Positions 17,245-57,981 of a stretch of DNA of 60,862 bases are shown here, piece after piece. Both the position numbers and the translations under genes were made by a program. The notes below the pieces were generated by a model. That model had not been told where the DNA came from. It did not search any database and was given only the letters and a program-made list of their open reading frames with translations. The DNA comes from Bacillus phage vB_BspP_Dartukuta. The DNA is taken from the sequence record MW749009.1; one strand, given 5' to 3'. The first letter of the stretch is position 1. Each line of letters starts with the position of its first letter.

Positions 17245-18516
17245 ATGCAGATCAGCTTAAACCTGCAGATACCGCACAAGCTCGCACCGCTTTACGAGCC
17301 GAAGCGATACAAAGTTATGCACGGTGGTCGTGGTGGTGGTAAGTCGCATTCTGTGGCTCAGGTGCTGCTTGACCTTGGTGCTCGGCAGCAGCTGCGTATC
17401 TTGTGTGCGCGTGAAATCCAGAAGTCAATGCGTGACTCAGTTCACCGCTTGCTCAAGGACTACATCATCAAGCTCGGGTTGACTGCATTTTATGAGATTA
17501 CTGATACCGAAATACGCGGCGTAAATGGCACGCTGTTCTTGTTCGCTGGCCTACAGGCGCACACAGTTGACTCAATCAAGTCATTCGAGGGTGTTGATAT
17601 TGTCTGGGTTGAAGAGGCGCACAGTGTTAGTAAGAAGTCGTGGGACGTACTAACACCGACCATTCGTAAAGAAGGTAGCGAAATATGGATGACGCTAAAC
17701 CCTGACATGGAGACGGACGAAACTTACGTTAGGTTTGTTGCTGCTGGCACCACTTCTGATACATGGGTTGCGGAAATCAACTGGCGCGATAACCCGTGGT
17801 TCCCAGTCGTACTGAATGAAGAGCGCAAGAAAGCCAAGCGCGAAATGAGTGCTGAAGACTACGAGCATATTTGGGAAGGAAAGGCGCGCACAGTTGCAGC
17901 CGGTGCCATATACCGTCACGAAATCATTGAGCTTGTTGCAGGTAAGCGGTTGCAGCGCATTCCGTATGACCCGCTTATGCCTGTTCACACTGTTTGGGAT
18001 TTAGGTTGGAACGACAGCATGACAATCCTGTTCGCGCAGAAAGGCCCAGCTGATATACGCATCATTGATTACATAGAGGAAAGCCATCGGACATTGGATT
18101 GGTACGTTCAACAGATAGAAAAAAGGCCATACAGATGGGGAGTTGACTATATCCCGCACGATGGGCGGACTAAAAACTTTCAAACAGGAAAAAGCACTGA
18201 AGAGCTGTTAAGGCAGATGGGCAGAAATCCTTTTGTACTCGCAGCAACTGGCATTGAAGAGGGCATTAAGGCAGTACGCATGATGTTTCCGCGCTGCTAC
18301 TTCGATGAAGACAAAACAAAACGGTTGGTTGAGTGTTTAAAGCGCTACAGCAGGCGCATACATGAAAAAACAGGCGAGCCAATGGGCCCATTGCATGATG
18401 AATACTCGCACGGCGCGGACGTGTTTAGATATTTAGGGCAAGCAGTGGAGTTGATGCGCAATGACATTGGACATACAGACTATCAAGAAGCACCCGCTGT
18501 GGACTGGCGCTTGTGA
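17245..18516 (+). CDS. Terminase large subunit (PBSX-type)
   Basis: Walker A HGGRGGGKSHSVAQ near the N-terminus, ...IVWVEEAHSVSKKSWDVLTPTIR... ATPase core; directly downstream of TerS. Confidence 0.9.
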   Translation: MQISLNLQIPHKLAPLYEPKRYKVMHGGRGGGKSHSVAQVLLDLGARQQLRILCAREIQKSMRDSVHRLLKDYIIKLGLTAFYEITDTEIRGVNGTLFLFAGLQAHTVDSIKSFEGVDIVWVEEAHSVSKKSWDVLTPTIRKEGSEIWMTLNPDMETDETYVRFVAAGTTSDTWVAEINWRDNPWFPVVLNEERKKAKREMSAEDYEHIWEGKARTVAAGAIYRHEIIELVAGKRLQRIPYDPLMPVHTVWDLGWNDSMTILFAQKGPADIRIIDYIEESHRTLDWYVQQIEKRPYRWGVDYIPHDGRTKNFQTGKSTEELLRQMGRNPFVLAATGIEEGIKAVRMMFPRCYFDEDKTKRLVECLKRYSRRIHEKTGEPMGPLHDEYSHGADVFRYLGQAVELMRNDIGHTDYQEAPAVDWRL

Positions 18517-18526
18517 GGACTAGACC

Positions 18527-20803
18527 ATGCAAAAACAAGAGCTAAGCAAAGAAGAATACGACGAGATCTTTGAGGAGATCGAGAATCAGCCGCGCTGGCG
18601 AGCCATAGCAGATAAGGAATCGGACTATGCAGACGGTAATCAACTTGATAGCGAACTGCTCAAGCGGCAGCAAGAGCTGGGTATTCCTCCGGCAGTTGAG
18701 GATTTGATTGGTCCAGCACTGCTATCAATTCAAGGTTACGAGGCAACGATACGAACAGACTGGCGCGTGACGCCTAACGGTGATCCAGGCGGCCAAGATG
18801 TAGCTGATGCAATCAACTTTAAGCTGAATCAGGCTGAGCGTGAATCGAAGGCTGACCGCGCATGCAGTGCTGCTTTCAAGTCGCAAATCACATGCGGTAT
18901 CGGATGGGTTGAGGTTGCGCGTGACTCCGATCCGTTTAAGTTTCCGTATCGCTGCAAGACGATCCACAGAAACGAAATCCACTGGGATATGAAGGCCACT
19001 GAGCCGGATTTGAGTGACGCTAGATGGTTACGCAGACAGCGTTGGTTGTCTCCAGAGCGCATTGCGTTAGTGTTTCCTGAGAAAAAGGAGCTGATTCTCG
19101 CAGCAGGTAAACATGGCTCGCAGTGGTGGCAAGATGAAACGCTCACATTTGAAGGCGGCGACGGTACTGGCCTCGAAAACGCATGGAATGAAGGCCGCTC
19201 ATGGACGATGCATGAAGACCGTTGGTACAACCCTCGCAGTAAAGAGCTGTGTGTCGCTGAGTTATGGTACCGCCGATGGGTACGAGTGCCTGTTATTAAG
19301 ACGCCCAACGGCAGGGTCGTTGAGTTTGATGAGTCAAACCTACAGCATGCCATTGCAGTCGCGAGCGGCACAGCTGAAGTAACGCAAGCAACTATCGCTA
19401 GAGTACGCCGTGCCTACTGGCTTGGACCACACAAACTGCATGACGGCCCGACACCTTACGCACACCGCCACTTCCCGTATGTGCCGTTCTTTGGATTCAT
19501 AGAAGACGCCACAGGCATTCCATACGGCTACGTGCGCTCAATGAAGTACGCGCAAGACTCGCTGAACAGTGGTCTATCAAAGCTGCGATGGGGCATGAGC
19601 GTTGTGCGTGCCGAGCGCACAAAAGGCGCAGTCGCCATGACTGATTCACAGTTTCGCAAACAGATTGCTCGACCAGATGCGGATATTGTCTTGGATGCGG
19701 CGCACATGCAGCAGCCTGGTGCGCGCTTTGAAATAAAACGAGACTACCAGCTGACTGACCAGCACTATCAAATGCTGAACGATAACCGAGCAAGCATTGA
19801 GCGCGTATCGAATATCACGGCAGGTTTTACCGGCAGGTCCGGCACAGCAACAAGCGGACTGCAAGAGCAGACTCAAGTCGAGCAGTCGAATCAATCACTC
19901 GCTAGCATCATGGATAACTTCAGAGAGGCACGTTCGCAAGTTGGCGAACTGCTTATGAGCATGATTATCCGTGACATTGGCGAGAAGCAAACTGAGGTGG
20001 TGATTGAGGGCGATGCAATCACTGCGGATCGTACTGTAACGCTCAACGCGCCTGAAACTGACCCCGCAACTGGCGTGGCATACCTATCAAACGACATTAA
20101 CCGCACTCGACTCATGGTGTCGCTCGAAGACGTACCAAGCACTAACAGCTACAGATCGCAGCAGTTACAGGCGTTGACAGAAGCAATCAAGCCACTGCCA
20201 GCCGAGTACCTGAGCGCAGCTATTCCGTTCTTAACGCAGTTGATGGACGTGCCGTTCAAACGTGACCTGATTGAAGCGTTCCGCGCAGTCGGTGAGACGC
20301 CAAGCCCTGAGCAGATCGAAGAACAAACGCAGCAGGCGGTACAGCAGGCGCTGAAGGACGCAGGCAACGAACTGAAGCAGCGTGAACTTGAAATCAAAGA
20401 GCGCAAAGCCGACAGCGAAGTGAAGAACTTGGATGCCAAAGCAGTTCAGGTGGGCGTACAAGCAGCTTTCGCAGCAATGCAGGCGGGTGCTCAGATAGCA
20501 CAGATGCCAATGATTGCGCCTATTGCCGACACAATTATGCAGGGTGCCGGTTACCAGAGGCCAAACCCAATGGGTGACGATCCAGACTTTCCGACACCAC
20601 AGCAGGCAGCCGCTACAGATATCCGTAATCCTTATGTGCAAGGTGAGGGCGCTCAACTAGGTAGCGAGCAGGTTGCCGAATTGTCGCAAGTTAACCAGAA
20701 CACCAGCCCACAATTTCCACCGGTACCTAGCGATGGCCAGTCAGCCATGCAAGGTATTGAAACAACCGATACAGCAGACAACCTGCTAGGAGGCATGCAA
20801 TGA
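18527..20803 (+). CDS. Portal protein (758 aa), inferred
   Basis: Large ORF immediately after TerL with a Gln/Ala-rich helical C-terminal region; assignment by position and size. Confidence 0.6.
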   Translation: MQKQELSKEEYDEIFEEIENQPRWRAIADKESDYADGNQLDSELLKRQQELGIPPAVEDLIGPALLSIQGYEATIRTDWRVTPNGDPGGQDVADAINFKLNQAERESKADRACSAAFKSQITCGIGWVEVARDSDPFKFPYRCKTIHRNEIHWDMKATEPDLSDARWLRRQRWLSPERIALVFPEKKELILAAGKHGSQWWQDETLTFEGGDGTGLENAWNEGRSWTMHEDRWYNPRSKELCVAELWYRRWVRVPVIKTPNGRVVEFDESNLQHAIAVASGTAEVTQATIARVRRAYWLGPHKLHDGPTPYAHRHFPYVPFFGFIEDATGIPYGYVRSMKYAQDSLNSGLSKLRWGMSVVRAERTKGAVAMTDSQFRKQIARPDADIVLDAAHMQQPGARFEIKRDYQLTDQHYQMLNDNRASIERVSNITAGFTGRSGTATSGLQEQTQVEQSNQSLASIMDNFREARSQVGELLMSMIIRDIGEKQTEVVIEGDAITADRTVTLNAPETDPATGVAYLSNDINRTRLMVSLEDVPSTNSYRSQQLQALTEAIKPLPAEYLSAAIPFLTQLMDVPFKRDLIEAFRAVGETPSPEQIEEQTQQAVQQALKDAGNELKQRELEIKERKADSEVKNLDAKAVQVGVQAAFAAMQAGAQIAQMPMIAPIADTIMQGAGYQRPNPMGDDPDFPTPQQAAATDIRNPYVQGEGAQLGSEQVAELSQVNQNTSPQFPPVPSDGQSAMQGIETTDTADNLLGGMQ

Positions 20804-20982
20804 CAGATGATTGCACCGATTGCGGCACATTCGCACGATCAGCGCCCGCTGATTACGACTACAGTAAGGCGCTTGACCTGCTTAATGAGCGTGTAGATAT
20901 GACTGACGAACAGCGCGATCTAGCAAAGGCATACCTAGACAAGGTGCGTGATAGTCAATTTAAAGAAGGTGAACAGCAATGA
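20800..20982 (+). CDS. Hypothetical small protein (60 aa)
   Basis: ORF track; start overlaps the portal stop. Confidence 0.4.
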   Translation: MTDDCTDCGTFARSAPADYDYSKALDLLNERVDMTDEQRDLAKAYLDKVRDSQFKEGEQQ

Positions 20983-21284
20983 GTAGAACAGAAGGCGGCA
21001 AAGTAACCGAGATTATTATCAGCGTTATGGGCCAAGCAGCCGTTTGCGACATTGTTGATACTGAGCAGCATCGTCAGGCTAATGTATATCTGCCACAGAA
21101 CGGTGGTGCCGCATTGTTTGCAATGTTTGACACAGGCACCGATGACGAGACAATCCGACAAGCGCTGATCCCAGTATTGCGTGGTGACCCGCTAGAGGTA
21201 GACATTGAGATCACAGACCAAGTAGCCGGTAGTTTGTTTGCTGGAACAATCGCACGACCAGTAGTTAACCTTCAACGTGCATAG
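20979..21284 (+). CDS. Hypothetical protein (101 aa)
   Basis: ORF track; start overlaps the upstream stop. Confidence 0.4.
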   Translation: MSRTEGGKVTEIIISVMGQAAVCDIVDTEQHRQANVYLPQNGGAALFAMFDTGTDDETIRQALIPVLRGDPLEVDIEITDQVAGSLFAGTIARPVVNLQRA

Positions 21285-21302
21285 CTACAAGGAATCAATC
21301 AG

Positions 21303-21327
21303 ACCCGCCATTGTGCGGGTTTTTTTG
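21303..21327 (+). terminator. Intrinsic terminator
   Basis: CCCGC-cattgt-GCGGG followed by T7 (21320..21326). Confidence 0.6.
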
Positions 21328-21343
21328 TGCCTGCAATAAAGCC

Positions 21344-21365
21344 AGCCCCCTGTAGGTTTTGAATG
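21344..21365 (+). promoter_or_regulatory. Conserved late motif, copy 2 (AGCCCCCTGTAGGTTTTGAATG)
   Basis: Just downstream of the terminator and ~110 bp upstream of the scaffold/capsid module. Confidence 0.35.
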
Positions 21366-21473
21366 CAAGCAAGCAATTAGCAACACTGCCTACCAAGCTG
21401 TGAAAGCAGCGATACATGGGCGCAAGCCCTTTGCGTAACCCTTGCGGCTACGGCGATATGTGGCGGGAAAGGC

Positions 21474-22472
21474 ATGAGTATTAATAACGAGTTAAACCAG
21501 TCGAACGATGGCGACCTAACACCTGATCAGCTTAATCGATTACTTGCGGGTGAAGATTACGAGGGCGATACCGAGGCGCAAGCTACGGAAACGGGAGGCC
21601 AGCCCGAAGCCTCCAGCGGTGATGATGAAGGCGAACCAAAGAACGAAGCAGAGTTAAGCGCTGATAACGCAGTGGTAATGGCGCGTGATAACAAACACAC
21701 CATTCCATTCGAGAAGCTGGAAGAAGCACGTGAGGGCCAGAAGCATTGGCGCGCACAGGCTGAAGCAGCACAGCAAGAGCTTGAAGCATTAAAAGCACAG
21801 GCGCAGGCGAGAGCTGACGCGGGTATTGCACCTACTCGAACAGATGAGTTGGTCGAGCAGGCTGCAGAAGCTATTGAGCAAGGTGCTGACATTAGTTTAT
21901 TCGGTGATTTCTCCGAAGAAGACTTGTCGAGCGGTATTGATAAAAAGTTCGACCAAAAAAGCGCGCCGCTTTTAGAGCGTATCGCACAACTGGAAGCAAC
22001 CTTGAAGCAAACGCTTGGGCCTATTCAAGAGAAGCAGGCAGTTGAGGCGTCAAATGCACATTACGACGCCATCCGCGCAGCGCATCCAGACGCTGACTCA
22101 GTAGTGCAATCACAGGAGCTGGCCGAATGGATTGACTCACAGCCTACTTTTGTTCGCGGATCAATGAATGCCGTGATTCAAAAAGGTAGCACTGATGAAG
22201 TTATTGAGCTGTTTAGCGCTTTCAAATCTGCAACTGGTACGACTCAAGCAGCAGGCAATCACACGGCGGAAGCTGTCCGGTCAGCTGCAAAACAAAAAAT
22301 AGCTAACGTAAAAAGTGATGTGCCTGCAAGCCTGTCGGATTTCCCAGCAGGTCGAGCAGGTGCGGGATCACGCAGCGAAGCTATGCAAGAAATGGCAGGA
22401 ATCGAGCTGCTAGATGCCATGGACTCCATGACTCCACAGCAGATCGAAGATTTCCTAAATAGAACTGTGTAA
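21474..22472 (+). CDS. Putative scaffolding protein (332 aa)
   Basis: Acidic, Ala/Glu/Gln-rich helical protein between portal and capsid; assignment by position and composition. Confidence 0.4.
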   Translation: MSINNELNQSNDGDLTPDQLNRLLAGEDYEGDTEAQATETGGQPEASSGDDEGEPKNEAELSADNAVVMARDNKHTIPFEKLEEAREGQKHWRAQAEAAQQELEALKAQAQARADAGIAPTRTDELVEQAAEAIEQGADISLFGDFSEEDLSSGIDKKFDQKSAPLLERIAQLEATLKQTLGPIQEKQAVEASNAHYDAIRAAHPDADSVVQSQELAEWIDSQPTFVRGSMNAVIQKGSTDEVIELFSAFKSATGTTQAAGNHTAEAVRSAAKQKIANVKSDVPASLSDFPAGRAGAGSRSEAMQEMAGIELLDAMDSMTPQQIEDFLNRTV

Positions 22473-22483
22473 CAGGAGGCAAC

Positions 22484-23767
22484 ATGCCCAGCCAGAACTC
22501 ACATGCGCCGTATGGTGATAAGCACAACATGAAGCAGCAGGCCGCTGGCTTGTTTGCTACCCACTTAAAACGCAACAACAAGCTATCGCACATGATCGGC
22601 AAAATGCCTAAAGGCGAAGCGGGTGCGATTGAAACAATTAAGCGCCAAACATCTTCACACCTACCATTTGTGCGTTGCATGGACTTAGGTAAAGGCACCG
22701 GTGACGAGATTACGTTTGACCTAGTAAATCCATTCGGTGCCGTGCCAATTATGGGCGGCGAAGTCGCTGAAGGTCGAGGTACCGGTTTAAGCCTAAGTCA
22801 AGACCGTTTACGAGTGAATCAGGCGCGTATCCCGATCAATTTGGGCGACACGATGACTACCATTCGCTCACCTGCTGACTTCCGTAAGTTGGGACGCCCA
22901 GTTGCTCAGGCAACAATGGACCGCTACATGGACCAATCACTTATCGTTCATGCAGCCGGTGCGCGTGGTTCTGTAAATAACTTTACCTGGTCAATCCCAC
23001 TCGAAAGCGACTCACGCTTTAACGATGTAATGGTAAACCCTGTGCGCGCCCCGACCAAAAACCGTCACTTCATGGCATCGGGCGGTTACGTTGAAGGCTT
23101 CAATCAGTCTGGTGGTGAGATGACCATTGCCAGCACAGACGTATTGAGCATGGGCGTTATCGATTCAATGCGCGCAGTGATGGATGAAATGATCCTACCG
23201 CCACCAATCGTTAAGTTTGACGGTGACTCTGCAGCAGATGACGAGCCTTTGCGCGTCATGCTGGTTACGCCAATGCAGTACAACCAGCTAGCAGCTGATC
23301 CTGAGTTCCGAAAAATTCAGATGGCGGCGCATACCCGTGCAAGTAGTAGCCAGCACCCGATCTTTAAAGGTGAAGTCGGTATCTGGAACAACTTCTTAAT
23401 CGTTAAGCAGCAGATCCCGATTCGATTCTTTGCTGGTGACAACATTAAGTATTGTGCTGATCACACTGGCGCTGAAAGCACCACAACCGTTCCTCAAGCG
23501 CTTGCAGCCGCTAAGTGCGCAGTTGATCGAGCAATCATCCTTGGTGGTCAGGCTGTTGGTGAAGGTATGGCCAAGTCTGACAAGTCAACGGTGCCGTTCT
23601 TCTGGTCTGAGAAAGAAATGGACCATGGCGACAAGGTTGAGTTGTTGATTGGCGCTATTCGCGGTGTAAGTAAATTCCGCTTTAACGTGAACACTGGCGA
23701 CCGTGTGGAAGCTACCGACTATGGCGTATGCATTCTGGACACTGTGGTTCCGCTGAACAAGGTTTAA
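22484..23767 (+). CDS. Putative major capsid protein (427 aa)
   Basis: Strong AGGAGG Shine-Dalgarno; size and position (after the scaffold) typical of a major capsid protein; no fold motif verified. Confidence 0.5.
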   Translation: MPSQNSHAPYGDKHNMKQQAAGLFATHLKRNNKLSHMIGKMPKGEAGAIETIKRQTSSHLPFVRCMDLGKGTGDEITFDLVNPFGAVPIMGGEVAEGRGTGLSLSQDRLRVNQARIPINLGDTMTTIRSPADFRKLGRPVAQATMDRYMDQSLIVHAAGARGSVNNFTWSIPLESDSRFNDVMVNPVRAPTKNRHFMASGGYVEGFNQSGGEMTIASTDVLSMGVIDSMRAVMDEMILPPPIVKFDGDSAADDEPLRVMLVTPMQYNQLAADPEFRKIQMAAHTRASSSQHPIFKGEVGIWNNFLIVKQQIPIRFFAGDNIKYCADHTGAESTTTVPQALAAAKCAVDRAIILGGQAVGEGMAKSDKSTVPFFWSEKEMDHGDKVELLIGAIRGVSKFRFNVNTGDRVEATDYGVCILDTVVPLNKV

Positions 23768-26796: not shown

Positions 26797-28683
26797 ATGC
26801 CACACATGCCAGGAAATGGCGCCATTTTCGGCGTTATCAGCGAGGACGGTCTAGCAAAGACTGGCTTCCCCGTGAGCCTTGTTGATAGAACCACGGGTAA
26901 ACTGGTGAGCCGACAACTGTCTGACGGAAACGGCGCGTTCGCCTTTAACGGCCTCAACCAGAACACCAATGACTATCAAGTGATTGGGCAGGACGAAGAC
27001 GGCGAAACGTACAAGAATGCGGTGATTCGTGACCGCATCCAGCCAGTGCCCGGATACCAAGGCGCAAGCTACTGGGGCAACTGGCGCTACGCTGCAATCC
27101 AGTACGGCGTCCACTCTTTCTATGACGGGCAGTTGGCCCACAACTATCTGGAAGACACCCAGTCTGGGACTGTGCCGTCGTACTCGGCGGGACAAGCACC
27201 GCGATTCCGATATTCTCCTAATAACTCGACAGGAACAGTAACGAAGCCAGTCATGGATGTTTCCATCACACAGGGAGACCCGAGCATTCCGGCCACTACG
27301 TTTGATTTGAGCACAATGACGGCCTACGGGATGACAAACCCCGCAGGAACCGTAGAGATCGACGCATTTGGAAGTCCTGCAAAGACCGCGCTAGAGCTGG
27401 TTGCTGACTTTTCTACACTTTCTTCGGAGTCTGGGTGGGCATCTTTCACTCATTCGTTATCGCACGAAAACGAAGACCCGAACACTGGAACCAATGTACC
27501 CCATGTAATTGGCCTTTACTACAACATCTCCGGGAAATACCTTCGCATTCAGGTTAACAACACCGGCGATTACCATCTACGGGCTGAACATAGAGTAAAC
27601 GTCGGCGACTTCTCAATGGAGGAGTATCAAGGCGTACATCATGTAGTGGCCTCCGCTGTGTTCGGCGAGGCGCTTAATTTGTACATCGACGGCGTTCTCG
27701 CTCATACGTTTTCTATGGTCGGAATGTCAGCCGCTTTGCGTTATAGAAACAACTCCGCTTATGGTCGAGTAGGCGGAACCCACATCCATGGGGAATACAA
27801 CCAAACCTCTAGCTCTAATCAAGGCATACATATCGCGCGTGGAATTTCTGGAAAGGTGGCTCTTCTCGCTTGGTATTCCAATGCGCTGGATGACGTTCAA
27901 GTTTTGGACTTACACCAAAGCCTAATGGTCGGGGCTGAGCCGAAGCTAACAGGCTTCGCTAAGGAAGTTTTCGCGGACCACCCCACCTTTTACGTCCGGC
28001 TGAACGAGCCAACTGGAACGACTTTCGTTCGGGACATGCTGCGCGGCCATACATCCGACGTTTTTGCCGGAAGGGTCTACGGCGAGACGCTCATGTTGCA
28101 GCCCTCCATCGTCGTTGGCGGCAACACCTTTGGGTTTAACGGTTCGTCATCCGTGCGCTTTAACTACAGCTCCCCGTCACTCTATAACTCCCAAGGGTTC
28201 ACGGTGCTGTGCGTCTTAAAGCCGGAGTTGGAAACTCCAGCTGCGACCGAGACACTGCTTAGATGCACAAACACTAGCGAGGCATACAATCACGGTGTAA
28301 TACTACAAAGGCTGGTCAATGGATGTTTAGGACTGATCTACCGCGCAGGCGGTTTGAACGAACAGATTGATTTCACTGTCCCTATTGGCACGGAGTCCAT
28401 GTGCTTAGCTGCCATTGCGATTGACAAAGTTGCCTTAACTGCCTCGCTTTTCATAAATGGCGAGTTAGCTGAGCAGCAGGTTATTGTTGGATCGTACATC
28501 GACCGACCGCCAAGCAGGGTATCTAACGCCATGTACTATCAGGCGATGATTGGAGGGATCACATCGGATACTGGGGGCATAACATCCCCTTACAGAGGAC
28601 TTCTCGGCGAACTTGCTGTCCTGCAAAACCCTATCACCGCTCAGCGGGCCAAGCAGATCTTCGACGCCACGCAGGTGGTGTAA
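26797..28683 (+). CDS. Tail-associated protein with two LamG/ConA-like lectin-type regions (628 aa), inferred
   Basis: ORF track 26575..28683; ATG at 26797 with GAGAGG upstream. Beta-rich N-terminus; two segments reminiscent of concanavalin-like lectin domains. Fold unverified. Confidence 0.45.
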   Translation: MPHMPGNGAIFGVISEDGLAKTGFPVSLVDRTTGKLVSRQLSDGNGAFAFNGLNQNTNDYQVIGQDEDGETYKNAVIRDRIQPVPGYQGASYWGNWRYAAIQYGVHSFYDGQLAHNYLEDTQSGTVPSYSAGQAPRFRYSPNNSTGTVTKPVMDVSITQGDPSIPATTFDLSTMTAYGMTNPAGTVEIDAFGSPAKTALELVADFSTLSSESGWASFTHSLSHENEDPNTGTNVPHVIGLYYNISGKYLRIQVNNTGDYHLRAEHRVNVGDFSMEEYQGVHHVVASAVFGEALNLYIDGVLAHTFSMVGMSAALRYRNNSAYGRVGGTHIHGEYNQTSSSNQGIHIARGISGKVALLAWYSNALDDVQVLDLHQSLMVGAEPKLTGFAKEVFADHPTFYVRLNEPTGTTFVRDMLRGHTSDVFAGRVYGETLMLQPSIVVGGNTFGFNGSSSVRFNYSSPSLYNSQGFTVLCVLKPELETPAATETLLRCTNTSEAYNHGVILQRLVNGCLGLIYRAGGLNEQIDFTVPIGTESMCLAAIAIDKVALTASLFINGELAEQQVIVGSYIDRPPSRVSNAMYYQAMIGGITSDTGGITSPYRGLLGELAVLQNPITAQRAKQIFDATQVV

Positions 28684-40534: not shown

Positions 40535-40558
40535 TAACACCCTGTAGGATTCGCAACC
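40535..40558 (+). promoter_or_regulatory. Conserved late motif, copy 3 (TAACACCCTGTAGGATTCGCAACC)
   Basis: Between the 631-aa and 662-aa genes, followed by an inverted repeat (40564..40603) that overlaps the Shine-Dalgarno of the next gene. Confidence 0.35.
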
Positions 40559-40607
40559 AAGTTCCGTAGCAGACAACATTAAGCGCAACAGCTAATGCTA
40601 CGGAGTC

Positions 40608-42616: not shown

Positions 42617-45600
42617 ATGAGCTTTGAAGTTGATTTAGACAGCGCTGTTCTTGAGGGTGATTATTATGGAGATGATACTAGGGTCAAGCCTGAGAGCAGC
42701 AGTTCAGGCTTTAGCCCTGAAGCAGGTCCCGCAAAGCAGCCAGCTCCCTTTAGCGTTGACCTAGAAAGCGCTGAGCTAGACGAAAAAGCCAACCAGGGCT
42801 TTATTGGAACATTAGCTGACGGTGCAAAATCGGCAGGTAGAGCCATTAGCTCTACTTACAATACTTATACTGGCGATGGTCAAGCAGTTGTTGATAACGC
42901 CAAGGCTCAAGAACTGGCCAATGAAGATAAAAGCCAAGACATTAAAAACTTCCAGTCTGACTGGGCGGCAAATACGGGCGCAGGTACTGATGACGAAGTA
43001 GGCTTATGGGGTGCTATCAAAGGCACTGGAAAGGCAATTATTGATAACCCTCGTGGTGCCGCCCTTTCAGTAGTTGAGCAATTCCCTAATTCAGTTCCAG
43101 CACTGGCCGCAGGCTGGGCAGGCGCTAAAGGCGGCGCAATGGCAGGGGGCGCAGTCGGCTCGGCTTTTGGTGGTGTCGGCGCTGGGCCTGGCGCTTTAAT
43201 TGGTGGCGCCGCGGGGTTTGTTGGCGGCATGTTCCTCGGTAATACGTTGACCGAAACGGGCCATAAGGCGCAAGAGTACGCTGCCGATGGTGAGTTCACG
43301 CCAGATGAGCAGTCAGCAGCTATTACCGAGGGCGCGAAAAAAGCCGGTGTTATTACAGCCGTAGATGCGCTTACCTTTGCTGTCGGTGGCAAGGTTTCTG
43401 GATACTATCGGAAAACAGCAGAGTCAACAGTTGAGGCAGCTACTCGCAAAACACTGCTTGACGCTGGTGTTGATATTAGCGATACAGCAGCGCTTACTGC
43501 GGCAAGAGGTAGCCCACAAATTGCAAGCCAAGTTGTTGAAGCGCAGAAAAATGCGGCAAAGATTGCAGACAATCTACGCAAGCGCGCAGGCGAGGCAGGC
43601 GCGCTACTTACAATGGAAACAGTCGGCGAAGGCTTAGGTGAATACTTAGGCGAACTGGCAGCGACTGGACAAGCAAGCGTAGCAGAGGCCGTGCTAGAGA
43701 GCTTCTTGTCGCTAGGTCAGTCTGGCGTTCAGTCGATGTTTAACTTTGCCAAGGCGCGAGAGCGTTCGCTCACTGACCAAGAATGGATTGATGCGTCAAA
43801 CGGTATTGCGCCAGAAGGTATGGCACCAGAGCAAATGCCGGTTGCTGATGGTATATGGGATAAGCCAACTCCAGAAGCCAAGATCGACATGGGGCAGATG
43901 CAGGGTGGCGGCGTAACACCGACACCTGTATTTGACCCGCAAGACATTGATCGCAACCTTGCACCGACACCATCGCAGCAAATGGGAATTAACCCTGATG
44001 CTGGCCCACTTTCTGCTGCTGCAGCGCAGTCAGTTGATAGTGGCTTGTTTACAGGCGGGTTTACCCCACAAGCCGGAATTAACCAATCGGCACTTGAGCG
44101 CGAGGGCGTAACGCCGCCGCCAGTATTAGATACTGACCAGATTGACCGCAACTTAGGAAGTATTGATCCATTAACAGGTGAGTACATGCCTGCACCTGAG
44201 CAGTTAGGTCAGTCGAGTCAAGCGGGAGGCGCCGGTAATTATGAGTATGACCAATGGGGCAACCTAAGCAGCGTTGATGGCCGCACAGTAGATGGTTACG
44301 GTCAAAACCAACCACGCCTTGGTTTTAATAGTAAAGCCGAGCGCAGCACCGCGCCGTTATATGAAGTTGGGCCTGATGGTGTGGCGCGTCCATCTTCAGG
44401 AGAGGCGGCGCGGAGTAGAAAAGAACGTATTGACCTATCATCGCTGAAAGGTAGACAGCAAACCCAAGCGCAAAAACAGCCTGCTGCTATGCCAGAGCAG
44501 CGTAGTCCTGAACAGCAAGCGCAATCTATCTGGGATTCAATGAATACCTTTGAGCGTAACGCTGCAGCAGCAAATGTTCTTGGTATGCGCGGCGTACCGG
44601 CTAAGAATGCAGCCACAAAAGCATGGGATAAGCTAAGCTCTGAACAGCAGGCCAAGCTCGTAACTGGACTTGAGAGCCAGCAAGGGAAACGCTGGATAGA
44701 CCCTAATCAGAAAGTGACTGACCAAACTGGCCCTGTGCTACAAAACCGCGACCGCACAAGCCAAGACTCAATCAATCAGATGCGAAGCATCTCAAACAAT
44801 CCAGACTACAGCAGGTTAAAAACATCAGGCTTCTTGTCTGACGGTGCGCCTGTTGTTGTTGATGAGAATATTCAAATACCAGCGTCACAGATGGGCGTTA
44901 CTGATACTGCTTCTGCAGGAAACGAGCGCTTTAACGTGCAGTACGCAGTAGTTGAAGCCGACCAGTTAATGACCAGTAACAGCATTGACGGTACCACTAA
45001 CGCTGAATACCAGACAGGGGCTGCAGGTAAGGCTAGAGCAATTGCAGGTAATGGACGAATCACTGGCTTGCAATCAGCATGGGCTAAAGGCAACGCCAGC
45101 CAATACAAAGCCGATATGGCAGCCGATAGAATGCACGGCATTGACCCGGCCGTTATTGAAGGCATGCGCAATCCTGTTTTAGTCCGCTTATTGCCGCAGG
45201 ATCAGGTCACTGACAATATTGGCGACCTAAGCAACAGAGACGAGAAAGGCAGACTTTCGCCGGTCGAGCAAGCCAAAACAGATATGGGCCGCATTGACCT
45301 TGATAGCCTAAAGTTTACTGCTGAAGGTGCTATCGGTGGCGAAGCGATCCACCAGTTCCGCATGGCTCAACCTGCAGCTGAGCGCGTGAGTGAGGCAGAG
45401 GCACGGAAGCGACTGACTTCTGCTGTCTTCCAAAAGGCATACGGAAACGATCAGCTTACAGAAATCCAGTCTGGTGAAAGTGACGATGCCAAATCAATCT
45501 TATCAGCACTGGCACAAGCAGCCCCAAGCATGTCACGTCTTGAAGGAGCTGGTGAGTTTGATATTCGCCCACTAATCACGCAGGCAGGCATTGCGGCTGT

Positions 45601-48600
45601 AAACGCAGCGCGTAGAGGCACTAAACTTGCTGATTATGTTCAGCAGTCAGAAATGGGTATTGATCCAATGGTATACCCAATTCTGGAAATGATGCTGAAC
45701 GAGAATGGCAATATCCGTAGTAGCAAATACATCGGCGAACAGCTAACCAATATGGCAAAGTTGGCTTATGATGAAGCCAACTCACCTAGCTCAGATATGT
45801 TTGGCGAAAAACCCAAGCGTACAGCTGAGCAGGTTATTCAAGACGCGCTTACTGGAGTACAAGGTTATGGCCAAATCAATGACGGAAGAGGGCAAGAAAG
45901 TCTGGGGCAGCGAGGGCGGTCAGAACCTGATGCGCAAATGGTTGAAGGGCCAGAAGGCGGACGAGAGCGACCAGCAGACACTAGACAAACTGCACCAACT
46001 CAACCAGAAGCAGAGCAAGAACAACCCGCAGCAGTAGAAAGCAATGCGCCTGAAACATGGCGCAGTAACTACATTCAAGCCGCCAAGATTGCACGCGAAA
46101 AAGGCATTAATCCTAAGCAGCATAAAAAACTCGCTGACTTGGTTGAAGCTATTGATGCGTCAAACACTAAACCTGAAGCTCAAACACAGCTAACAGCACA
46201 ACAGAAGCAGGCTTCAGGCAGTGTAGATGGTGCAAAAGTCCATCTTAACAACAGCATTGACCTAACCAGCGCATTAGCTGCAATCGCACGCGGCGCACAA
46301 TTAAGCACCGAGCCAAACGGTGACGTTATTCTTAGTGGCACCAAGATAATTACGCTTCCAAAGCCGCCAACTTCTATTGATGAAGTTATTGCCCCGTTAG
46401 CCACAGCCTTACTAGAACAAATGCGAGCAGATGGCGTTTCTATGCCTGGCAACCCAGCGGACATGACGCGGGATCAGTTTGCTATTGCCTATCACTTTGC
46501 AAACATAATTCCAGAGTTTGAAATCAGCGGAGCAGATATTGGTGGCGTAGTCCAAGGATCAAGCCGTGGCTTAACAGTAGACTCAGACAAGCTATACGAC
46601 AAGATCATCGAGCAAGCCAAAGAGCAGGCTAAACCAGCCTTGGAGCTTAACCAGCAAACCGAAGAATCCTTAGCTAAAGATGCCAAACGATTAGAGCAGC
46701 TGCAGAAAGAAGAAGCTGCGCAGAAAGTCGCGCAGAAAGCTGCAGAAAGGAAACAGCGTGAGCGTGACGCAGACAAGGCCAGAGCGGACGAAGTGGTTGA
46801 TGACTTCCAGTTGGGGCAGTCTGCAGAAGAAGTAATGTCTGGCATGGGTGATATTTTTGCGACTGAGAGCAAGCCAGCAGATAAAGGCATTGCGTCTCAA
46901 GCCGATGACAGCCATGTCACAGTTGTTGATAACCAATACAACCCAAACCCTACAGAAGCGCAGAAGCAGGCTGGCAACTACAAGAAGGCTCACGTTAAAT
47001 TCCAAGGCCTTGATATCACAGTAGAGAATCCAGTCGGATCAGTGCGCAGTGGCGTAGATCCTGACGGCAATACTTGGTCAAATACTATAAAGCATGATTA
47101 CGGATACATTAAGCGCACTAAGGGCGCTGACGGCGACCATGTTGATGTGTTTATAGGTAAAGATACCGAAAGCGATAAGGTATTTGTAATTGATCAGCCG
47201 CACAAAAACGGTAAGTTCGACGAACACAAAATCATGCTCGGCTTTAAAGACCAGACGCAGGCCGTAGAAGCGTACAAAGGCAACTATCAGAAAGACTGGA
47301 AAGTTGGCTCTGTCACTGAAATGACTGTGGGCGAATTTAAGCAGTGGCTTAGCAATGGTGATACCACCAAACCGGTTGAGCCAGTCGCGAAGCCAGCAGC
47401 GCAAACAAAGCCAAGCCAAGCCATTGAGGACTTTGGTGAGAGGCTGGAAGGCGCACGCAAGGATTACGCCAGCAAACTATCTGACGCTAAAGAGGTAGAC
47501 ATTGCGACTGAGCCACTATCAAAGTCTTGGCCAGAGCCGAATTATCAGAAGTTGATTGACGGAGGAATGCCGCTAGAAACAGCAAGTATTGTTCGTGCTA
47601 TTCGTGATGAGATTCCAGTGAAGCCGCGCGCATCATGGCGACTGAAAGGATGGGTGCGACAAGTAAGCGAAATGCGTGATTTAGCCTTGAATTTGATGGG
47701 GGAAACAGCTACAGCTAAAGTGATTGTAGAGCAGATAAAATCTAATAAATCTTTATCAGACATAGTGAATCGTGCAGACCTGTACTCGGCAGTTGGGCAC
47801 GATAAAAGCCTAAAAGATATTAGTTTAAAACAAAGCTCTTACTCGTTGATTGATGGTGTTAAATACTCGCCACCGAAAGAGCTCTGGACGGTTGAAAGGC
47901 CGATTAAAAGCAGCGTAATAAGCAACATGCCCAGACGTATTGCGACAGCTGAAACAAGAGAGCAAGCGATTGCCAAATTCAAAAATGCGTATGCAACATT
48001 GGACGAAAGCAAACGTGTCAAGAACAAAGCAGTTGAGTTTGGGGTTTATACAGACAGAACCACAAAAGATGTTTTCATTGGCCGGAAGGTTGGCAAAAGT
48101 ATTGCTCGCGTAAAAACTGGATTCGAAACTGCTAAAGATGCAATTGCACACCTAAAGGAAAACTATGCTGCTCTTGAAGAGCGGTTTAACAAGATGAAGG
48201 ATACGCCCGATCATCGTAAGGCTGAAAACTCACCTAGAGTTGGCGTTGATCACCGAAATGGCGCGGATGTAACACCGGAGCAGTTCTCTGATACGTTCGG
48301 GTTCAGAGGGGTGCAGTTCGGTAACTATGTAGAGCAAGGACGTAGGCAGCAGGATCTAAATGAAGCCTATGATGCGCTTATGGACATGGCTGGCGTGTTA
48401 GGTATTCCAGCAAAATCTCTATCTTTAAATGGTGAGCTTGGACTAGCGTTTGGTGCTCGTGGTAAGGGTGGAAAACAAGCAGCTAAAGCGCATTATGAGC
48501 CAGATCAAATTGTTATTAACTTAACTAAGAAAAATGGCGCAGGCAGCCTTGCTCACGAATGGTGGCATGCGCTTGATAACTATTTTGGCCGCGAGCGTGG

Positions 48601-51600
48601 CGGTAAAAGCAATGAAATGTATGCCTCAGACAATCGAGCTCACGCGACAGTCAGACCTGAAATGGCAAAGGCTTATCGTGATATTGCAAGCGCAGTAAGC
48701 CGAACCAAGCTGAAGTTTCGTTCAGACAAGCTCGATAGAATGCGCACAAAACCATACTGGGGTACCGGTATAGAAATGACTGCGCGATCTTTCGAGAGCT
48801 ACGTTATTGAGAAGCTGCGTGATAGCGAGTTATCTAATGATTATTTAGCCAATATTGTTGGCGAAGATTACTGGAATGCTGCGGCAGCACTGGGCATTGA
48901 AAAGGATGGTACTTATCCGTATCCAGAGGCGGCTGAGATACCGGAAATCCGCGCTGCGTATGATAACTTTTTTAACACTCTAGAAACAAAGGAGGGTGAA
49001 GATGGCAATGTCCTGCTTTTTAGCTTTGCAGGCAAGACTGCTCGTGGCGCTGATCTTATGGCGCTGGATCAGGCTCAGTTGCGCATTGCTTCTGGTGACA
49101 ACGCCGAGACTGTACGCCAAGAAACAGGTTGGCACCGTGGCGATGATGGAAAGTGGCGCTTTGAGATCAGCGATGATCAAGCCAAGCTGCGCGTAGCTGG
49201 TAAAAATGCAGGTGAGCTTATTGACTCAGCCGCGCTTGACGCGATCACCGGTGGCCGCAAGTTCCCAGTGACTTCTGACCTGATCGACCACGCTCAACTA
49301 TTTGTTGCCTATCCTAAACTAAGCAATATCAAAGTAGAGAAAATGCCAGAAGGCGGTACCGCTCTAGCGCGATTAAAGCGCAGAGCTACAGGCTTCACTA
49401 TCCAGTTGCGCGATAACTTGCCACGCGAGAAAGTGGCGTCTGCAATCTTGCATGAGCTACAGCACGGCATTCAGGTTTACGAAGGCTTTGCCGTAGGCGG
49501 CTCTAAGAATATGGTCTTCAGTGATCTTGATATGAGTGGAGCCAAGGCGTATCGCGCACTTGCCGGTGAAGTGGAAGCGAGAAATACCCAAACACGCCAC
49601 TCTATGACGCCAGCTTTGCGCCGCAACATTGCGCCTGAGCTGACTCAGGACACGCCAAGTGCAGACGTGATCGTCACGTTCAACGGTAAGGACATTACCA
49701 ACAAGGCAATTCCTAATAACGTCAATAACGCGCCGATAACTGATGCCTCGCTGGTGCGAGCGTTCGATGTACAGTTCCCTCGGTTAACTAAAGCTGTGCG
49801 CACCATGCTTGCCCGTGGTAATAAGGGCGAGCGTGGTGGTGTGGTCGTGATTGATAGCGCTGATCCATTGATGATTGCCCGTGCGTTCGCCAAGAAAACA
49901 GGCAAGCCAATATCGCAGTCGGTGCAAATGTTCTCAGACGCTGGTGTGATCAATGGCTTCTTTGATCCTAAGTCTGGCCTTACCTTCCTTGTTGGTCCGA
50001 ACTTGAATCCAGTCACCGGCACAGCTGTTTTGCTTCACGAAATGATCCACGGTCAACAGCGCCAGAAGATCGACAAGGCCGCACTTGCCATGCTGATGAA
50101 TCGCGGCAAAGAGAAAAACGCAGAAACACGAGCGTTCCTTGATCGCGTAGCTGCTCGCATGGATGATGCTGGCGAAACAGCGAACGCACAAGAGGCAGGC
50201 GCTTACATTGTTGAGCAGGCCGTAATGGAAGGTAAGAGCGCTGGTTATGGCACTGCAGACAGCCGATTCCTTTCATGGGTAGACCAACATATTGGTAAGA
50301 CGGTAGGTGACTTCTTACGCTCGTTCATCGGTAATTTGCGCAGCTGGGCGCTGCGTAACGGCTTGCCTATTGGTCCGATTACTGTGGACGATCTTGTTAG
50401 CTACGCAATGGCAGGTATGAAGCAGGCTGGTCGCGGTAATGTTGATGGCGGTGCCGCTGGGTTCAGTCGTGACGCAACAGCTAGCCTAGAGGATGCTCTA
50501 GCGAAACTTGATGCGCTCGGCCTGAAGCATCGGATCAGCGAGCGCAACGATGTTATTACTGTGAGCAAGATTGAGGTGCCCGAGGGCGCTAGAGGTCAGG
50601 GCGCTGGATCATCGGCAATGCAAGCCCTGATCGACTACGCGGACGCCACTGGTAAGCACATTGCTTTAACACCAACAGCCGATTTTGGTGGTAACAAAGC
50701 AAGGCTTAAGGAGTTCTATCAGCGCTTTGGATTCAAGGAAAATAAGGGTAAAAACAAAGTTTACGAAGTCTCAGAAGGAATGGTTCGCGAAAATCCGAAT
50801 GGGCGCACCCTATATTCAAAGGGCATCACTGAAGATCTAGCAGAAGGCCAGCGGCAGTTTGCACAAACAGAAAATGCTTACGGTGGTCGTGCAGCCTACG
50901 ATCAGGCAAAATCAGAGGGCAAGACCAAGCTGAACTATCAGCAGTGGGTGCAGGTACGTACGCCTGCTTTTAAAAACTGGTTTGGGGATTGGGAAAATGA
51001 ATCAGAAAGAGTTGAGCGAAAAACAGAAAGAGTTCAGGAGGTGGCTGGACGAAACACTGCCAAACCCAACGCCAGAGCAACTCAGCCAGCTGGACGAGCG
51101 TGGCGACTGGATCCAGAAACCGGAGAGCCAAGAATCTTCTATCACGGAACCAAAGACAGCTTCACCGTCTTCGACCTAGATCACCAGAACAGAAAGGATC
51201 ACGGCTGGTTAGGTACAGGTATTTACACTGGAAGCGATAAACTTTTAGCAGAGTCATACGCAAGGCTGAAAGATGGCTCAGGTGAGCCGCGAGTTATGGA
51301 GTTTTTTGCAAATGTAAGGAACCCATATAAGGCTACTATAGAAGATAAGCAGCGGGGAAGATTTGCTGATAGAGCTTACGCCGACAGAGTTACAGAAAAG
51401 TTAAAAGAAGCTGGATACGACGGTGTAGTACTTCCGTTCGCAGATGGCAGTGTCGAGCTGGTGGCGTTTGATAAGCCGCAGATCAAATCAGCCACCGGCA
51501 ACGTCGGTACGTTTAGTGCAGACAATGATGATATACGATTTAGCTTTGCCGGCCAAAGGTCAGGAACAGCCGACCACTACTCATTAGGGTCAGCGCAGCA

Positions 51601-54600
51601 GCGCATTGAATCCGGCGAAAATGCAGAAGCGGTGCGTCAAGACACGGGCTGGCACAAAGGCATTGATGGCAAGTGGCGCTACGAAATTAGCGACCATGAC
51701 GCAAAACTACGCAAGCCATTTCCATCTAAGGGCCAGCTTTGGGGTGGAGTTTACGAAAGTGTCAACCAGTCCAAGGTGCAAAGAGGCGAGGGATACGGTA
51801 TCAGCCTAGGCGAAATACTGGATCACCCTGCACTATTTGCGGCATACCCGCATCTTGCAAGCCTATCTGTAAGCACGCAAAAGGGTAGCGGTGCGTCATA
51901 CGAGTCCGGCAGCCCTTCCAGTCCGGCATCTATCAGTATCGGCACCGATGTGCCAATGTATGACGTGCCAAGCAAGCTGCTGCACGAAATCCAGCACGGC
52001 ATTCAGAATATTGAAGGGTTTGCGCGTGGCGGCACTTTAGAAACGGGCGCTGGTTTGAGCAACCTTCATGCTCTACTTGAAAAGCAGAAGAATGAATTTG
52101 AAAACGAGCACGGGTTCAACGACTGGATTTTTGAACTAATACTGGAGCAGCCAAAACGACATAAAGCCTTGATGGACGAGGGCGCAAAAGATGGGTATTC
52201 ACTCCGTTCGCTATATCAGTCTTTTGCTAGTGAGAAGCTATCAGAAGAAGATCGCGGATATTTCGTATCGAGGATGCTGGGTTATGAAGATAAACTAAGA
52301 AAAGTCGCGCTTTCAAAGCACATAACTCCGAGCGAGTTCTATCAACGATTAGCAGGCGAAGTTGAAGCCCGCAACACCCAGATCCGCCATAAGATGACGG
52401 CTGAACAGCGCAAAAGCACACCGCCAAGCGCAACGCAAGATGTATCCGATGCCGATGCCATTGTCATGTTCAACGGAACGGAAATGCACAACGCGCCCGC
52501 ACCGGCAAACACCGGCACAAGCGACATTCGCTTCAGCCGCTCAGCTAACCCAGCTTCAATAAGCGCGGCACCAAACGGAATGGCAGCTTGGGATAGCCCT
52601 TCGGCATCGAAGTTCGATGACTTTGTTTACAAGATGCAAGATAAGCACGTTGATACAAAGCGCGTGATTGAAGCTATCCGCGACACAGGTAAGGCAATCA
52701 GCGATGACCTAGACGTATACCTGCAAGAAACATTGTTTCATGGGCGAGCAGCTAAGCGCACGCAAGACTTCTTAAACAAGGAAGTAAACCCGCTTATTGA
52801 GTACATGCAAAGCGCCAAGGTTGAAATGAGCGATCTTGAAGAGTTCTTGCACGCACGACACGCACAGGAAGCTAACGCGCTGATTGCTAAGCGCGATCCT
52901 AATATGCCTGATGGTGGGTCAGGTATGACAAACGCTGAGGCCGCAAAATACCTTAATTCGCTAAATGGCGTTCGACGTAAGCAATTAGAGAACGCTGCAA
53001 AGTTTGTCGATAAGATTATCGGTGGAACACGAGAAACCATTGTTAGCTATGGCCTTGAAAGCCAAGAAACGGTTGATGGCTGGACAGCCGGATTCAAGCA
53101 TTACATTCCGCTGCAGCGTGAAGATAAAGACGGCCAGATGGGTATTGGCCAAGGCTTCAGCGTTAAAGGAAAAGAGACTAAAGGACGCACAGGCTCAACA
53201 CGTAAGGTTGTTGATATTCTGGCCAACGTGATGATGCAGCGTGAGCGCGCCATTGTTCGTGGTGAGAAAAACCGAGTAGCAGTTGCATTGCTAGGACTCG
53301 CTAAAGATAACCCGCTACCTGAGTTCTGGCAGGTTGATAAAGTTCCGACAACACGGGTGCTTGATAAAGTAACAGGCTTGGTACGCAACCAAGCGGACCC
53401 TATGTACAAGAGTAGAGACAACGCTATTGTAGCTAAGGTAAACGGCCAAGAGCATGCGATCCTGATGAACGAAGACGACCCACGCGCAATGCGCATGGCC
53501 GAGGCTTTAAAGAATCTTGATGCGGCACATCTGGAAGGGTTGTTAGGTGCTACAGCCACTGCGACACGATACTTTGCAGCAGTGAATACGCAGTACAACC
53601 CGATATTTGGCGTAACAAACTTTGTTCGCGATATTCAAGAAGCCATGCTTCACTTACAAAGCACGCCACTAGCAGGGCAGCAGTCGCGCTTGTTCAAAAA
53701 TACATTCACCGCAGTTGGCGCGGTAATGAAAGCAGAGCGCGACGGCAGAAAAGGAAATAATGCAACAGGGAAGTGGGGCGTTTTATGGGAAGACTTTCAG
53801 AATACCGGTGGGCAGACTGGCTTCAGGGATCAGTTCAGCAATAGCGCAGATCGCGGCAAAGAGATCCAGCGAGCTTTAACACCGGATGGCTGGGCGGAAA
53901 CAGGCTTAGGCAAGTTCTTTACCGCCAATGGAGCACTTAAAGCACCGCTCGAAGTAGTGCGCAAAAAAGCGGCATGGCTGTTTGATCTGCTATCTGATTA
54001 CAACACGGCAATGGAAAACGGCGTGCGATTATCTGCTTATGAGACTGGGATTAACGCTGGCATGAGCAAAGAGCAGGCGGCAGCACTGGCCAAGGGATTG
54101 ACCGTTAACTTTAATCGAAAAGGCCAAGTTACCCAGCAAGTCGGCGCGCTCTATGCGTTCTTCAATGCGAGCGTGCAAGGTACTGCTCGATTAGGTCAGT
54201 CGCTGTTTGATATGGATGCTGGCAAGCCTAAAACGCTACGCCTATCGTCTCTAGGGAAGAAAATCGTATCAGGCGGCGTTATGCTGGGCGCGTCTCAGGC
54301 TGTACTGCTAGCGATGGCTGGCTTTGATGATGAAGAGCCGCCTGAGTTTATCCGTGAGCGCAACATCATCATACCGACGGGCGGAAAAACCTATATCAGC
54401 ATACCAATGCCGCTTGGCTATCACGTTATCGCAAACCTTGGCCGTATACCGATGGAGTTTGTTCTTGGTGGTGGAAAAGATGGCGCTAAGCACCTGTTTA
54501 ACCTAATGGACGTAATGGCAGACATTTACAATCCAATCGGTAACTCAGGCTTATCCATGCAAACAATCGCGCCTACTGTGCTCGATCCGCTTGCTGGCCT

Positions 54601-57908: not shown

Positions 57909-57931
57909 GCCACCCTGTAGAGTTTCACACG
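57909..57931 (+). promoter_or_regulatory. Conserved late motif, copy 4 (GCCACCCTGTAGAGTTTCACACG)
   Basis: ~50 bp upstream of the holin ATG; followed by a 9-bp inverted repeat (57936..57944 / 57970..57978) that includes the GGAAG ribosome-binding site. Confidence 0.4.
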
Positions 57932-57981
57932 CCATGTAACTTCCTAAAGAATACCCAAAAACGGTATTTGGAAGTTACGTT

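Follow-up and report, generated by a model that had tools for sequence, protein, structure and literature searches.

Why would a strong intrinsic terminator interrupt the late region of a phage genome, between the portal gene and the genes for the scaffold and capsid proteins? This question was raised by a locus in the sequence of Bacillus phage vB_BspP_Dartukuta (MW749009.1), where a first-pass annotation had placed a textbook hairpin followed by a run of Ts. Hereafter, the whole stretch of DNA that was analysed (60,862 nucleotides, nt) is called the window. Within it, we observed a terminator-like hairpin that was unique under a strict definition, was conserved among relatives, lay at a conserved position and was followed by a sequence motif with a fixed promoter geometry. 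Judging from the sequence, the element at 21303-21326 was probably a working Rho-independent terminator that closed the first late transcription unit and insulated the promoter of the scaffold and capsid genes.

The terminator was located on the plus strand and consisted of the stem arm ACCCGC (21303-21308), the loop CATTGT (21309-21314) and the stem arm GCGGGT (21315-21320), with a T7 run (21320-21326) that began on the last base of the stem. The first-pass annotation had given its extent as 21303-21327; the start was correct, whereas the end was one base beyond the T run, position 21327 being a G. All six pairs of the stem were perfect (five of them GC), and eight pairs were possible when A21301-U21322 and G21302-U21321 were added. 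The RNA fold of 21299-21330 had an energy of -12.0 kcal/mol (z = -3.3), and none of 200 shuffled sequences was as stable. In a consensus scan of the region from 12 to 31 kilobases (kb), 21303-21326 was the top-ranked terminator-like site. Moreover, it was the sole match on both strands of the 60.9-kb window to a strict definition of a terminator (a perfect stem of at least 6 pairs with at least 4 GC, a loop of 3-8, and then six or more Ts), while dinucleotide shuffles contained 0.08 such matches on average. A second hairpin abutting an unbroken T run was not found in the plus-strand intergenic sequences of the late region. A loose terminator pattern was not enriched as a class in the region (25 matches versus 20 +/- 4.7 in shuffles), and therefore our claim concerned the site at 21303-21326 alone. 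The stem, the T7 run, the fold energy, the uniqueness and the conserved pairing described below all bore out the textbook character of the terminator, and the gene calls agreed with its reported location between the terminase/portal block and the scaffold/capsid block. Namely, it began 18 nt past the TAG of orf101, the last gene before it, had the same orientation as this gene, and sat in a 189-nt gap preceding the scaffold ATG (21474). The motif CCCCCTGTAGG (from 21346) started 19 nt beyond the last T.

Is this hairpin a peculiarity of one genome? According to its sequence, the window is a temperate F116-like phage or prophage (Pseudomonas phage F116, Hollowayvirus). Its portal, capsid and terminase DNA was about 70% identical to that of phages H66, LKA5 and F116, and no near-identical DNA was detected by megablast of 20500-22500 against phages or of 20700-21600 against E. 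coli genomes. The hairpin was kept in every examined relative that carried orf101 (loci L004 and L035-L040), and orf101 was always the last gene before it. In these relatives, the hairpin and its T run formed the best-conserved block of the alignment, above the adjacent coding sequence. The stem occurred in compensatory variants (ACCCGC/GCGGGT, GCCCGC/GCGGGC and GCCCGC/GCGGGT), in which the outer A-U pair was replaced by G-C, through changes on both sides, or by G-U. The loop differed as well (CATTGT, CATCGT or CACAGT).

The same junction was marked in other ways elsewhere in the lineage. Unrelated canonical terminators were located between portal and scaffold in L003, L013, L015, L016, H66 and Shewanella phage Y11, and canonical junction terminators were also present in relatives without inserted genes (L029; L019/25/26/33). 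In many relatives, the motif came after the terminator at this junction, as it did in the window, with non-homologous hairpins. In another set of relatives (L012, L006, LKA5, L008-10, P. stutzeri phage 8P and several further loci), the motif itself was paired with an inverted copy located upstream and thereby made up the 3' arm of a hairpin. A T-rich run followed this motif-embedded hairpin in L012, L006, 8P and several further loci, whereas the run of LKA5 and L008-10 was weak. In GenBank, H66 (KC262634) and LKA5 (KC900378) already had ab initio 'terminator' features annotated at the orthologous junction. Although these features marked the same place (portal or cargo, then scaffold), they were predictions only and their sequences were unrelated to the hairpin in the window; those of LKA5 in fact covered the motif hairpin. 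The junction terminator appeared to be specific to the portal/scaffold boundary because the other three motif sites (see below) mostly lacked an upstream terminator. Thus, a stop signal before the scaffold gene recurred across the lineage without being universal, and it was apparently selected.

These observations also bore on an alternative, namely that the hairpin mainly stabilised the 3' end of the upstream messenger RNA (mRNA) or acted as a barrier to its processing, or that it was a functionless chance structure. Stem-loops at 3' ends are known to shield mRNAs from exonucleases, and the lack of enrichment of the loose pattern was in line with this alternative. However, any terminator hairpin stabilises its transcript as a side effect, and such a role leaves the unbroken U7 run unexplained. 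As for chance, it was excluded as the origin of the hairpin because the site was unique, its pairing was conserved through compensatory changes, and unrelated terminators recurred at the same junction. We considered this alternative as a whole extremely improbable.

A more serious question was whether the terminator belonged to the late region or to the genes inserted in front of it. Two accessory cargo genes occupied the slot between portal and scaffold on the plus strand, neither with a Pfam or PHROG match: orf60 (20800-20982), whose ATG overlapped the portal stop codon (ATGA), and orf101 (20979-21284), which encoded 101 amino acids (aa) and whose start overlapped the preceding stop in the same way (ATGA). 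The latter represented a real gene family with 35 clusters at 65-99% identity. Both genes were absent from LKA5, L012, L029 and other relatives. The portal-to-scaffold gap ranged from 145 to 3228 nt among the relatives, and the inserts were unrelated between clades (including loci L036, L038, L001, L016 and L046). Some close relatives carried genes of the Tad2-like (anti-Thoeris) family and Phage_gp49_66 genes in this slot. Moreover, the insert was far more AT-rich than its flanks in H66 (GC fraction of 0.48 versus 0.63), L016 (0.33 versus 0.45), L032 and L015, whereas the cargo in the window had a near-native composition (0.50 in the gap versus 0.54 in the portal gene).

Such a slot resembles the morons of lambdoid phages, a concept of Hendrix and Juhala, which are extra genes located between conserved genes and equipped with their own promoter and terminator. 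Accordingly, the terminator could be mainly the cassette's own: it would have come with orf101 and would keep possible lysogen-expressed transcription of the cargo out of the structural genes, and its place beside a late promoter would merely mark where cargo is tolerated. This possibility was favoured by the variable gap with its unrelated genes, the AT-rich inserts, the Tad2-like and Phage_gp49_66 genes, and the presence of the terminator in every examined carrier of orf101. Additionally, a different cargo (in L003) brought a different terminator, yet the sequence right past the T run stayed homologous. On the other hand, relatives free of cargo also had a canonical terminator or a motif-embedded hairpin (L029, the L019 group, L012, LKA5 and 8P). 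In the window, the insertion and its 3' terminator were both present, while a deviant base composition and an own promoter were not: orf60 and orf101 overlapped the upstream stop codons, and the cargo had no conserved promoter of its own, the sole sigma-70-like match (at 21127) lying inside orf101. We had considered this match (TTGACA-16-GACAAT) as the promoter of a small RNA of about 170 nt that would extend to the terminator, and we rejected it since it was not conserved in the orf101 homologues. Thus, we regarded a terminator kept mainly for the cargo as somewhat unlikely, and it would in any case be compatible with a late terminator that insulates the scaffold promoter.

If the terminator insulates a promoter, where is this promoter? 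The first-pass annotation had noted a copy of a conserved late motif directly after the hairpin, and this proved right: CCCCCTGTAGGTTT occupied 21346-21359, 19 nt after the last T. The annotation had also assumed that the late region would otherwise be one operon. This assumption did not hold, since four motif-marked promoter-like sites split the late region, with or without the terminator. The motif had the form C(A/C)CCCTGTAG(A/G)nTT, and each of its four copies preceded a late gene block. Its core CCCTGTAG occurred eight times in the window, where 1.0 was expected, and the exact CCCTGTAGRnTT had four matches, all of them intergenic, on the plus strand, and located before terS, the scaffold gene, the gene for a 662-aa protein, and the holin gene. 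In Pseudomonas phage H66, all four orthologous positions carried the motif as well.

All four plus-strand copies shared one geometry, counted along the motif: a -35-like hexamer at +11 to +16, a spacer of 17 base pairs (bp), and a -10-like hexamer at +34 to +39. Copy 1 (CACCCTGTAGAGTTT, 16538-16552) was located before terS and was accompanied by TTTACA (16551-56) and TCAAAT (16574-79). Copy 2 (CCCCCTGTAGGTTTT, 21346-21360), before the scaffold gene, was followed by a weak sigma-70-type core promoter (21359-21387) with TTGAAT (21359-64), a 17-bp spacer and AACACT (21382-87), so that the proposed activator box would be centred at about -41.5. Copy 3 (CACCCTGTAGGATTC, 40538-40552) preceded the genes for the 662-aa protein and a 4203-aa protein, with TCGCAA (weak) and CAACAT as its hexamers. 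Copy 4 (CACCCTGTAGAGTTT again, 57911-57925) preceded the holin, endolysin and Rz genes and had TTCACA-17-AAGAAT at the same offsets.

The spacing was also kept among relatives. In nearly all of about 25 distinct relatives, the distance from the scaffold motif to a conserved ACACT box was 35 nt, while the sequence in between varied freely. We scanned IMG/VR for the exact 14-mer CCCCTGTAGGGTTT and obtained 25 distinct F116-like sites before the scaffold gene, the homologue of the 662-aa gene, the lysis genes or terS. A hexamer of the form nA...T (nAnnnT) at +34/+35 was found at all 25 of them and at 16 of 70 unrelated chance matches (Fisher p = 2e-12, a value that overstates the independence of the sites, many of which were mutually homologous). 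The motif was therefore probably the activator box (about -46 to -37, with its centre at about -41.5) of weak sigma-70 promoters, and the scaffold unit was predicted to start at about 21394-96, within a conserved CCAAGC box. The ATG of terS was located 46-47 nt from the start of the motif in the window and in H66 and had no Shine-Dalgarno (SD) sequence; the same applied to the lysis genes of L069 and L077. Since the ATG coincided with the predicted transcript start and an SD sequence was missing, the terS mRNA, and the lysis mRNA in some relatives, may be leaderless (16574-16588 in the window; 5200-5216 in L034; also in L069, L077 and L086).

Several inverted repeats accompanied these promoters. 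A short one often held the -10-like hexamer in its loop. Two long ones on the plus strand (40563-40604 and 57936-57978) had their 5' arm in the spacer and the -10 hexamer and their 3' arm over the SD sequence of the 662-aa gene and of the holin gene, respectively. As the 5' arm preceded the predicted start, these structures could arise in read-through transcripts only. By analogy with the fold-back inhibition of IS10, they may act in a similar way.

Could the motif be something other than a box in host-type promoters? We rejected the possibility that it was a promoter for a phage RNA polymerase, either with CACTATAGGG as a T7-like core or with a virion polymerase, as in N4, residing in the 4203-aa protein: polymerase domains were not found, the motif preceded late rather than early genes, and the fixed -10-like hexamer favoured the host sigma-70. 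It could also be proposed that the terminator is silent during lytic growth through antitermination in the style of lambda Q or P22 gp23, with the motif serving as a loading or pause site of the antiterminator, so that only polymerase that had not been modified, such as that in the prophage, would respond to the terminator. The lambdoid gene order with a small regulator directly before terS was in agreement with this proposal, and the motif core TGTAGnnT loosely resembled the ops element GGCGGTAGnnTG (compared by eye only). However, the regulator had a winged-helix fold, there were four motif sites instead of one, the terminator was upstream of the motif, and the lysis cassette would need an initiation point of its own. 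Moreover, the hallmarks of lambdoid Q antitermination, a Q-family protein and a single late promoter with a read-through terminator, were not found in this system. It was quite unlikely, therefore, that antitermination explained the locus.

Which protein might bind the box? The gene next to motif 1 on its upstream side, which followed ninB, ybcO and rusA (the 'Q position'), encoded a 143-aa winged-helix protein of phrog_8117 (16096-16527, plus strand). Its H66 homologue was 42% identical and located at the same place, and the family was present in 40 phage records. An AlphaFold model (predicted local distance difference test score, pLDDT, of 86) showed a winged helix at the N-terminus and a long helix at the C-terminus, along with a small sheet. 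A comparison of the protein sequence with the PDB returned nothing significant, and the tests run gave neither a Mor/C Pfam match nor a Q-like match. By its position and co-conservation only, this protein was a candidate for the late activator. As a side observation, the listed start of its open reading frame (ORF) at 16009 was probably too early, and some GenBank records named its family AbiEi antitoxin.

Between the predicted start and the scaffold gene, there was a structured 5' leader (21392-21473, plus strand) with hairpins P1 (21397-21410), P2 (21418-21429) and P3 (21447-21464). In nearly all relatives, the leader folded into three hairpins. These folds were obtained for each sequence separately, since RNAalifold on a MAFFT alignment recovered the last hairpin only, the variable ones being out of register. 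The stems of the first two hairpins were wholly different between clades while their pairing was retained, and their loops were mostly of the GNRA type; a leader hairpin loop read GGCGAUAU. In contrast to these variable stems, P3 was inside a 24-nt block (GCGGCYACGGCGATATGTGGCGGG / GCGGCTACGGCGATATGTGGCGGG, 21444-21467) that was near-invariant across phages with about 50% capsid identity. The CCC at 21439-41 paired with the GGG at 21465-67, which was the start of the SD sequence. In the leader alignment, 97% of the cells were able to pair, as compared with 93.4% in shuffles (0 of 500 reached the observed value) and 20-49% in slid controls, and four of the pairs showed double changes. By analogy, the invariant hairpin, which would sequester part of the SD sequence, may serve as an operator through which the scaffold protein regulates its own translation; autoregulation by the scaffold protein of P22 is known genetically.

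Other explanations of the leader were considered as well. The H66 annotation extends the scaffold protein at its N-terminus into the last part of the leader (21438-21473), but this part could not be coding, since the upstream ATG was GTA in the window, with an in-frame stop at 21378; the coding interpretation was also broken by a 4-nt insertion in L003 and L004. The downstream ATG of the H66 scaffold homologue (H66_0044) was conserved in all relatives, and the upstream one was missing from the window. The GenBank start of H66_0044 was probably 39 nt too far upstream (L001 6206-6244 corresponded to H66 28531-28569). Rfam 15 contained no family that matched the terminator, the motif or the leader at gathering score within 21200-21560, and the sub-threshold hits were driven by the terminator hairpin (Trp_leader, 24 bits versus 41; STnc370, 24 bits versus 54). 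Finally, the invariant hairpin was unlikely to be a pac site, since the packaging start of phiC725A was mapped near the terminase genes and terS (PMC5217972).

Taken together, the following order of events can be proposed. The promoter at motif 1 would drive the first late unit, consisting of terS, terL, portal, orf60 and orf101, which would be ended by the terminator. Once 21303-21326 had been transcribed, the GC-rich hairpin would form behind the U7 tract, and the transcript would be released at about 21324-21327. The next late promoter, with its CCCTGTAGG box abutting a weak -35/-10 pair, would lie 19 nt further on and would probably be switched on by the 143-aa winged-helix protein. Through the structured leader of about 80 nt, it would drive the scaffold, capsid and downstream virion genes. 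In this arrangement, the terminator would make the level of scaffold/capsid mRNA independent of the level of terminase, portal and cargo mRNA. It would also block upstream polymerases from crossing the activator-dependent promoter, so that neither promoter occlusion nor read-through scaffold transcripts with another 5' end would arise. A role of the terminator in the stoichiometry of portal/terminase versus scaffold/capsid transcripts, which had been suggested in the first-pass annotation, was plausible; the idea was reasonable because the proteins encoded upstream were catalytic or needed in 12 copies, while those encoded downstream were needed in hundreds of copies.

Several points weighed against this interpretation, apart from the shared ancestry of the motif sites mentioned above. 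No recognisable junction terminator was present in L005, L007, L011, L027 and L032, and therefore the terminator was not indispensable. In the window, it was co-inherited with orf101 and was possibly kept for the sake of the cargo. The inverted motif copies of some relatives may be a second protein-binding site rather than part of an RNA hairpin. The motif did not follow the winged-helix gene in four distant phages (Shewanella Y11, Pseudoalteromonas Y7, Acidovorax AP1 and P. stutzeri 8P), because their gene order was different. Moreover, termination in vivo and its efficiency, the point where transcription starts, which protein is the activator and whether the promoter depends on it, and the selective benefit were all inferred. 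The most extended version of our proposal was an F116-like late system, in which a phrog_8117 activator would act on the CCCTGTAGG box of four weak sigma-70 promoters, some late mRNAs would be leaderless, and the scaffold unit would be delimited by a terminator under selection, or else by a hairpin embedding the motif, together with a conserved three-hairpin leader. We offered it tentatively, as a possible rather than a probable scheme.

The remainder of the window was in line with the lambdoid gene order: ninB, ybcO, rusA, the small regulator, terS, terL, portal, orf60, orf101, the terminator, scaffold, capsid and virion genes, followed further downstream by the 662-aa gene, the gene for a 4203-aa 'polyvalent' protein, a minus-strand immunity region, holin, endolysin and Rz. 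The genes of late unit 1 with PHROG/Pfam matches were terS (16586-17242), terL (17245-18516) and portal (18527-20803), all on the plus strand, as were the genes for the scaffold-like protein (phrog_479, 21474-22472) and the major capsid protein (22484-23767). The 'polyvalent' virion protein (42617-55228, plus strand) contained InPase, LPD1/5/23/38, ADP-ribosyltransferase, ddrB-ParB and GNAT-like domains, and its gene had a diverged internal duplication of about 2.5 kb (49073-49504 versus 51593-52036). On the minus strand, 56223-56407 had above-threshold Rfam matches to C4 antisense RNA, isrK and the c4 a1/b1 target, which identified it as an antisense immunity module of the P1/P7 type, with the virion genes on one side and the lysis cassette on the other. 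In the early region, there was a transfer RNA gene (9886-9959, minus strand) as well as another good terminator (11590-11608, minus strand; AGCCTGCCTTGTGCGGGTT and T8) after the minus-strand ORF 11639-12277. Additionally, five to six iteron-like repeats (GGTCGGAAAnnTATCCGA; 13119-13252, plus strand) were located inside a 332-aa ORF (12803-13801) and were probably a replication origin within an initiator gene.

The terminator itself was routine, and its value was that of a landmark for the boundary of a transcription unit. Together with the motif, it suggested that the late region of these widespread, temperate and transducing podophages was organised as four separately promoted units instead of one antiterminated operon, and that the portal/scaffold junction was not only a regulated boundary but also a place where accessory genes were preferentially inserted. 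The more novel results came from the side: the promoter system, the candidate winged-helix activator, the possibly leaderless late mRNAs, and the conserved scaffold leader as a candidate cis-regulatory RNA. If the F116-like late system was real, it spanned Pseudomonas, enteric-type and Shewanella hosts, and no description of it was found in the literature searched. There we likewise found nothing relevant on the motif sequence or on late transcription in F116-like phages, for which the late-region boundary appeared to be undescribed. Possible uses included the choice of cargo insertion sites and the tuning of capsid dosage in phage engineering, as well as the annotation of promoter and terminator features and of the scaffold start codon in H66-type records.

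How does this organisation compare with known systems? Lambda Q with PR' and tR' had in common with the window the lambdoid order and a regulator gene directly upstream of the first late genes. However, there were four sites here instead of one, and the terminator was upstream of the motif here and downstream of the promoter in lambda. The morons were similar in the genes inserted between two virion genes, the intrinsic terminator at their 3' end, the hypervariable slot and, in several relatives, the deviant GC content. In contrast to morons, the cargo of the window lacked its own promoter, overlapped the portal stop and had near-native GC, and junction terminators existed without cargo. The T-phi terminator of T7 follows the capsid gene and is the classical case of a terminator that tunes the ratios of late mRNAs. 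The likeness was that of an intrinsic-type terminator inside the late region that would alter the relative dose of structural mRNAs. It differed in that T-phi acts on the T7 RNA polymerase and is leaky by design, while the host polymerase was presumed here, and in that the terminator of the window preceded the scaffold and capsid genes and was followed by a new promoter.

Phage P2, with its four Ogr-dependent late operons, provides another parallel. The closest system in logic was phage Mu, which is an analogue, since the candidate activator here was not a member of the Mor/C family. Mu has four late promoters with a -10 hexamer but without a good -35, which are activated by protein C bound at -43.5 (PMC2582627). 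Both phages thus had several late promoters distributed over the morphogenesis and lysis region, each with a recognisable -10, a poor -35, and an activator site overlapping the -35. The site is centred at -43.5 in Mu and was predicted from the sequence at about -41.5 here. In both cases, the activator would be a small phage DNA-binding protein made earlier, although the protein of the window was a candidate only. This candidate had a winged-helix fold without a Mor/C Pfam match, and the box was 10-12 bp long (CCCTGTAGG), as compared with a 16-bp dyad in Mu. In Mu, too, the protease/scaffold and capsid genes, which lie behind the portal block, are transcribed from a promoter of their own, PI.
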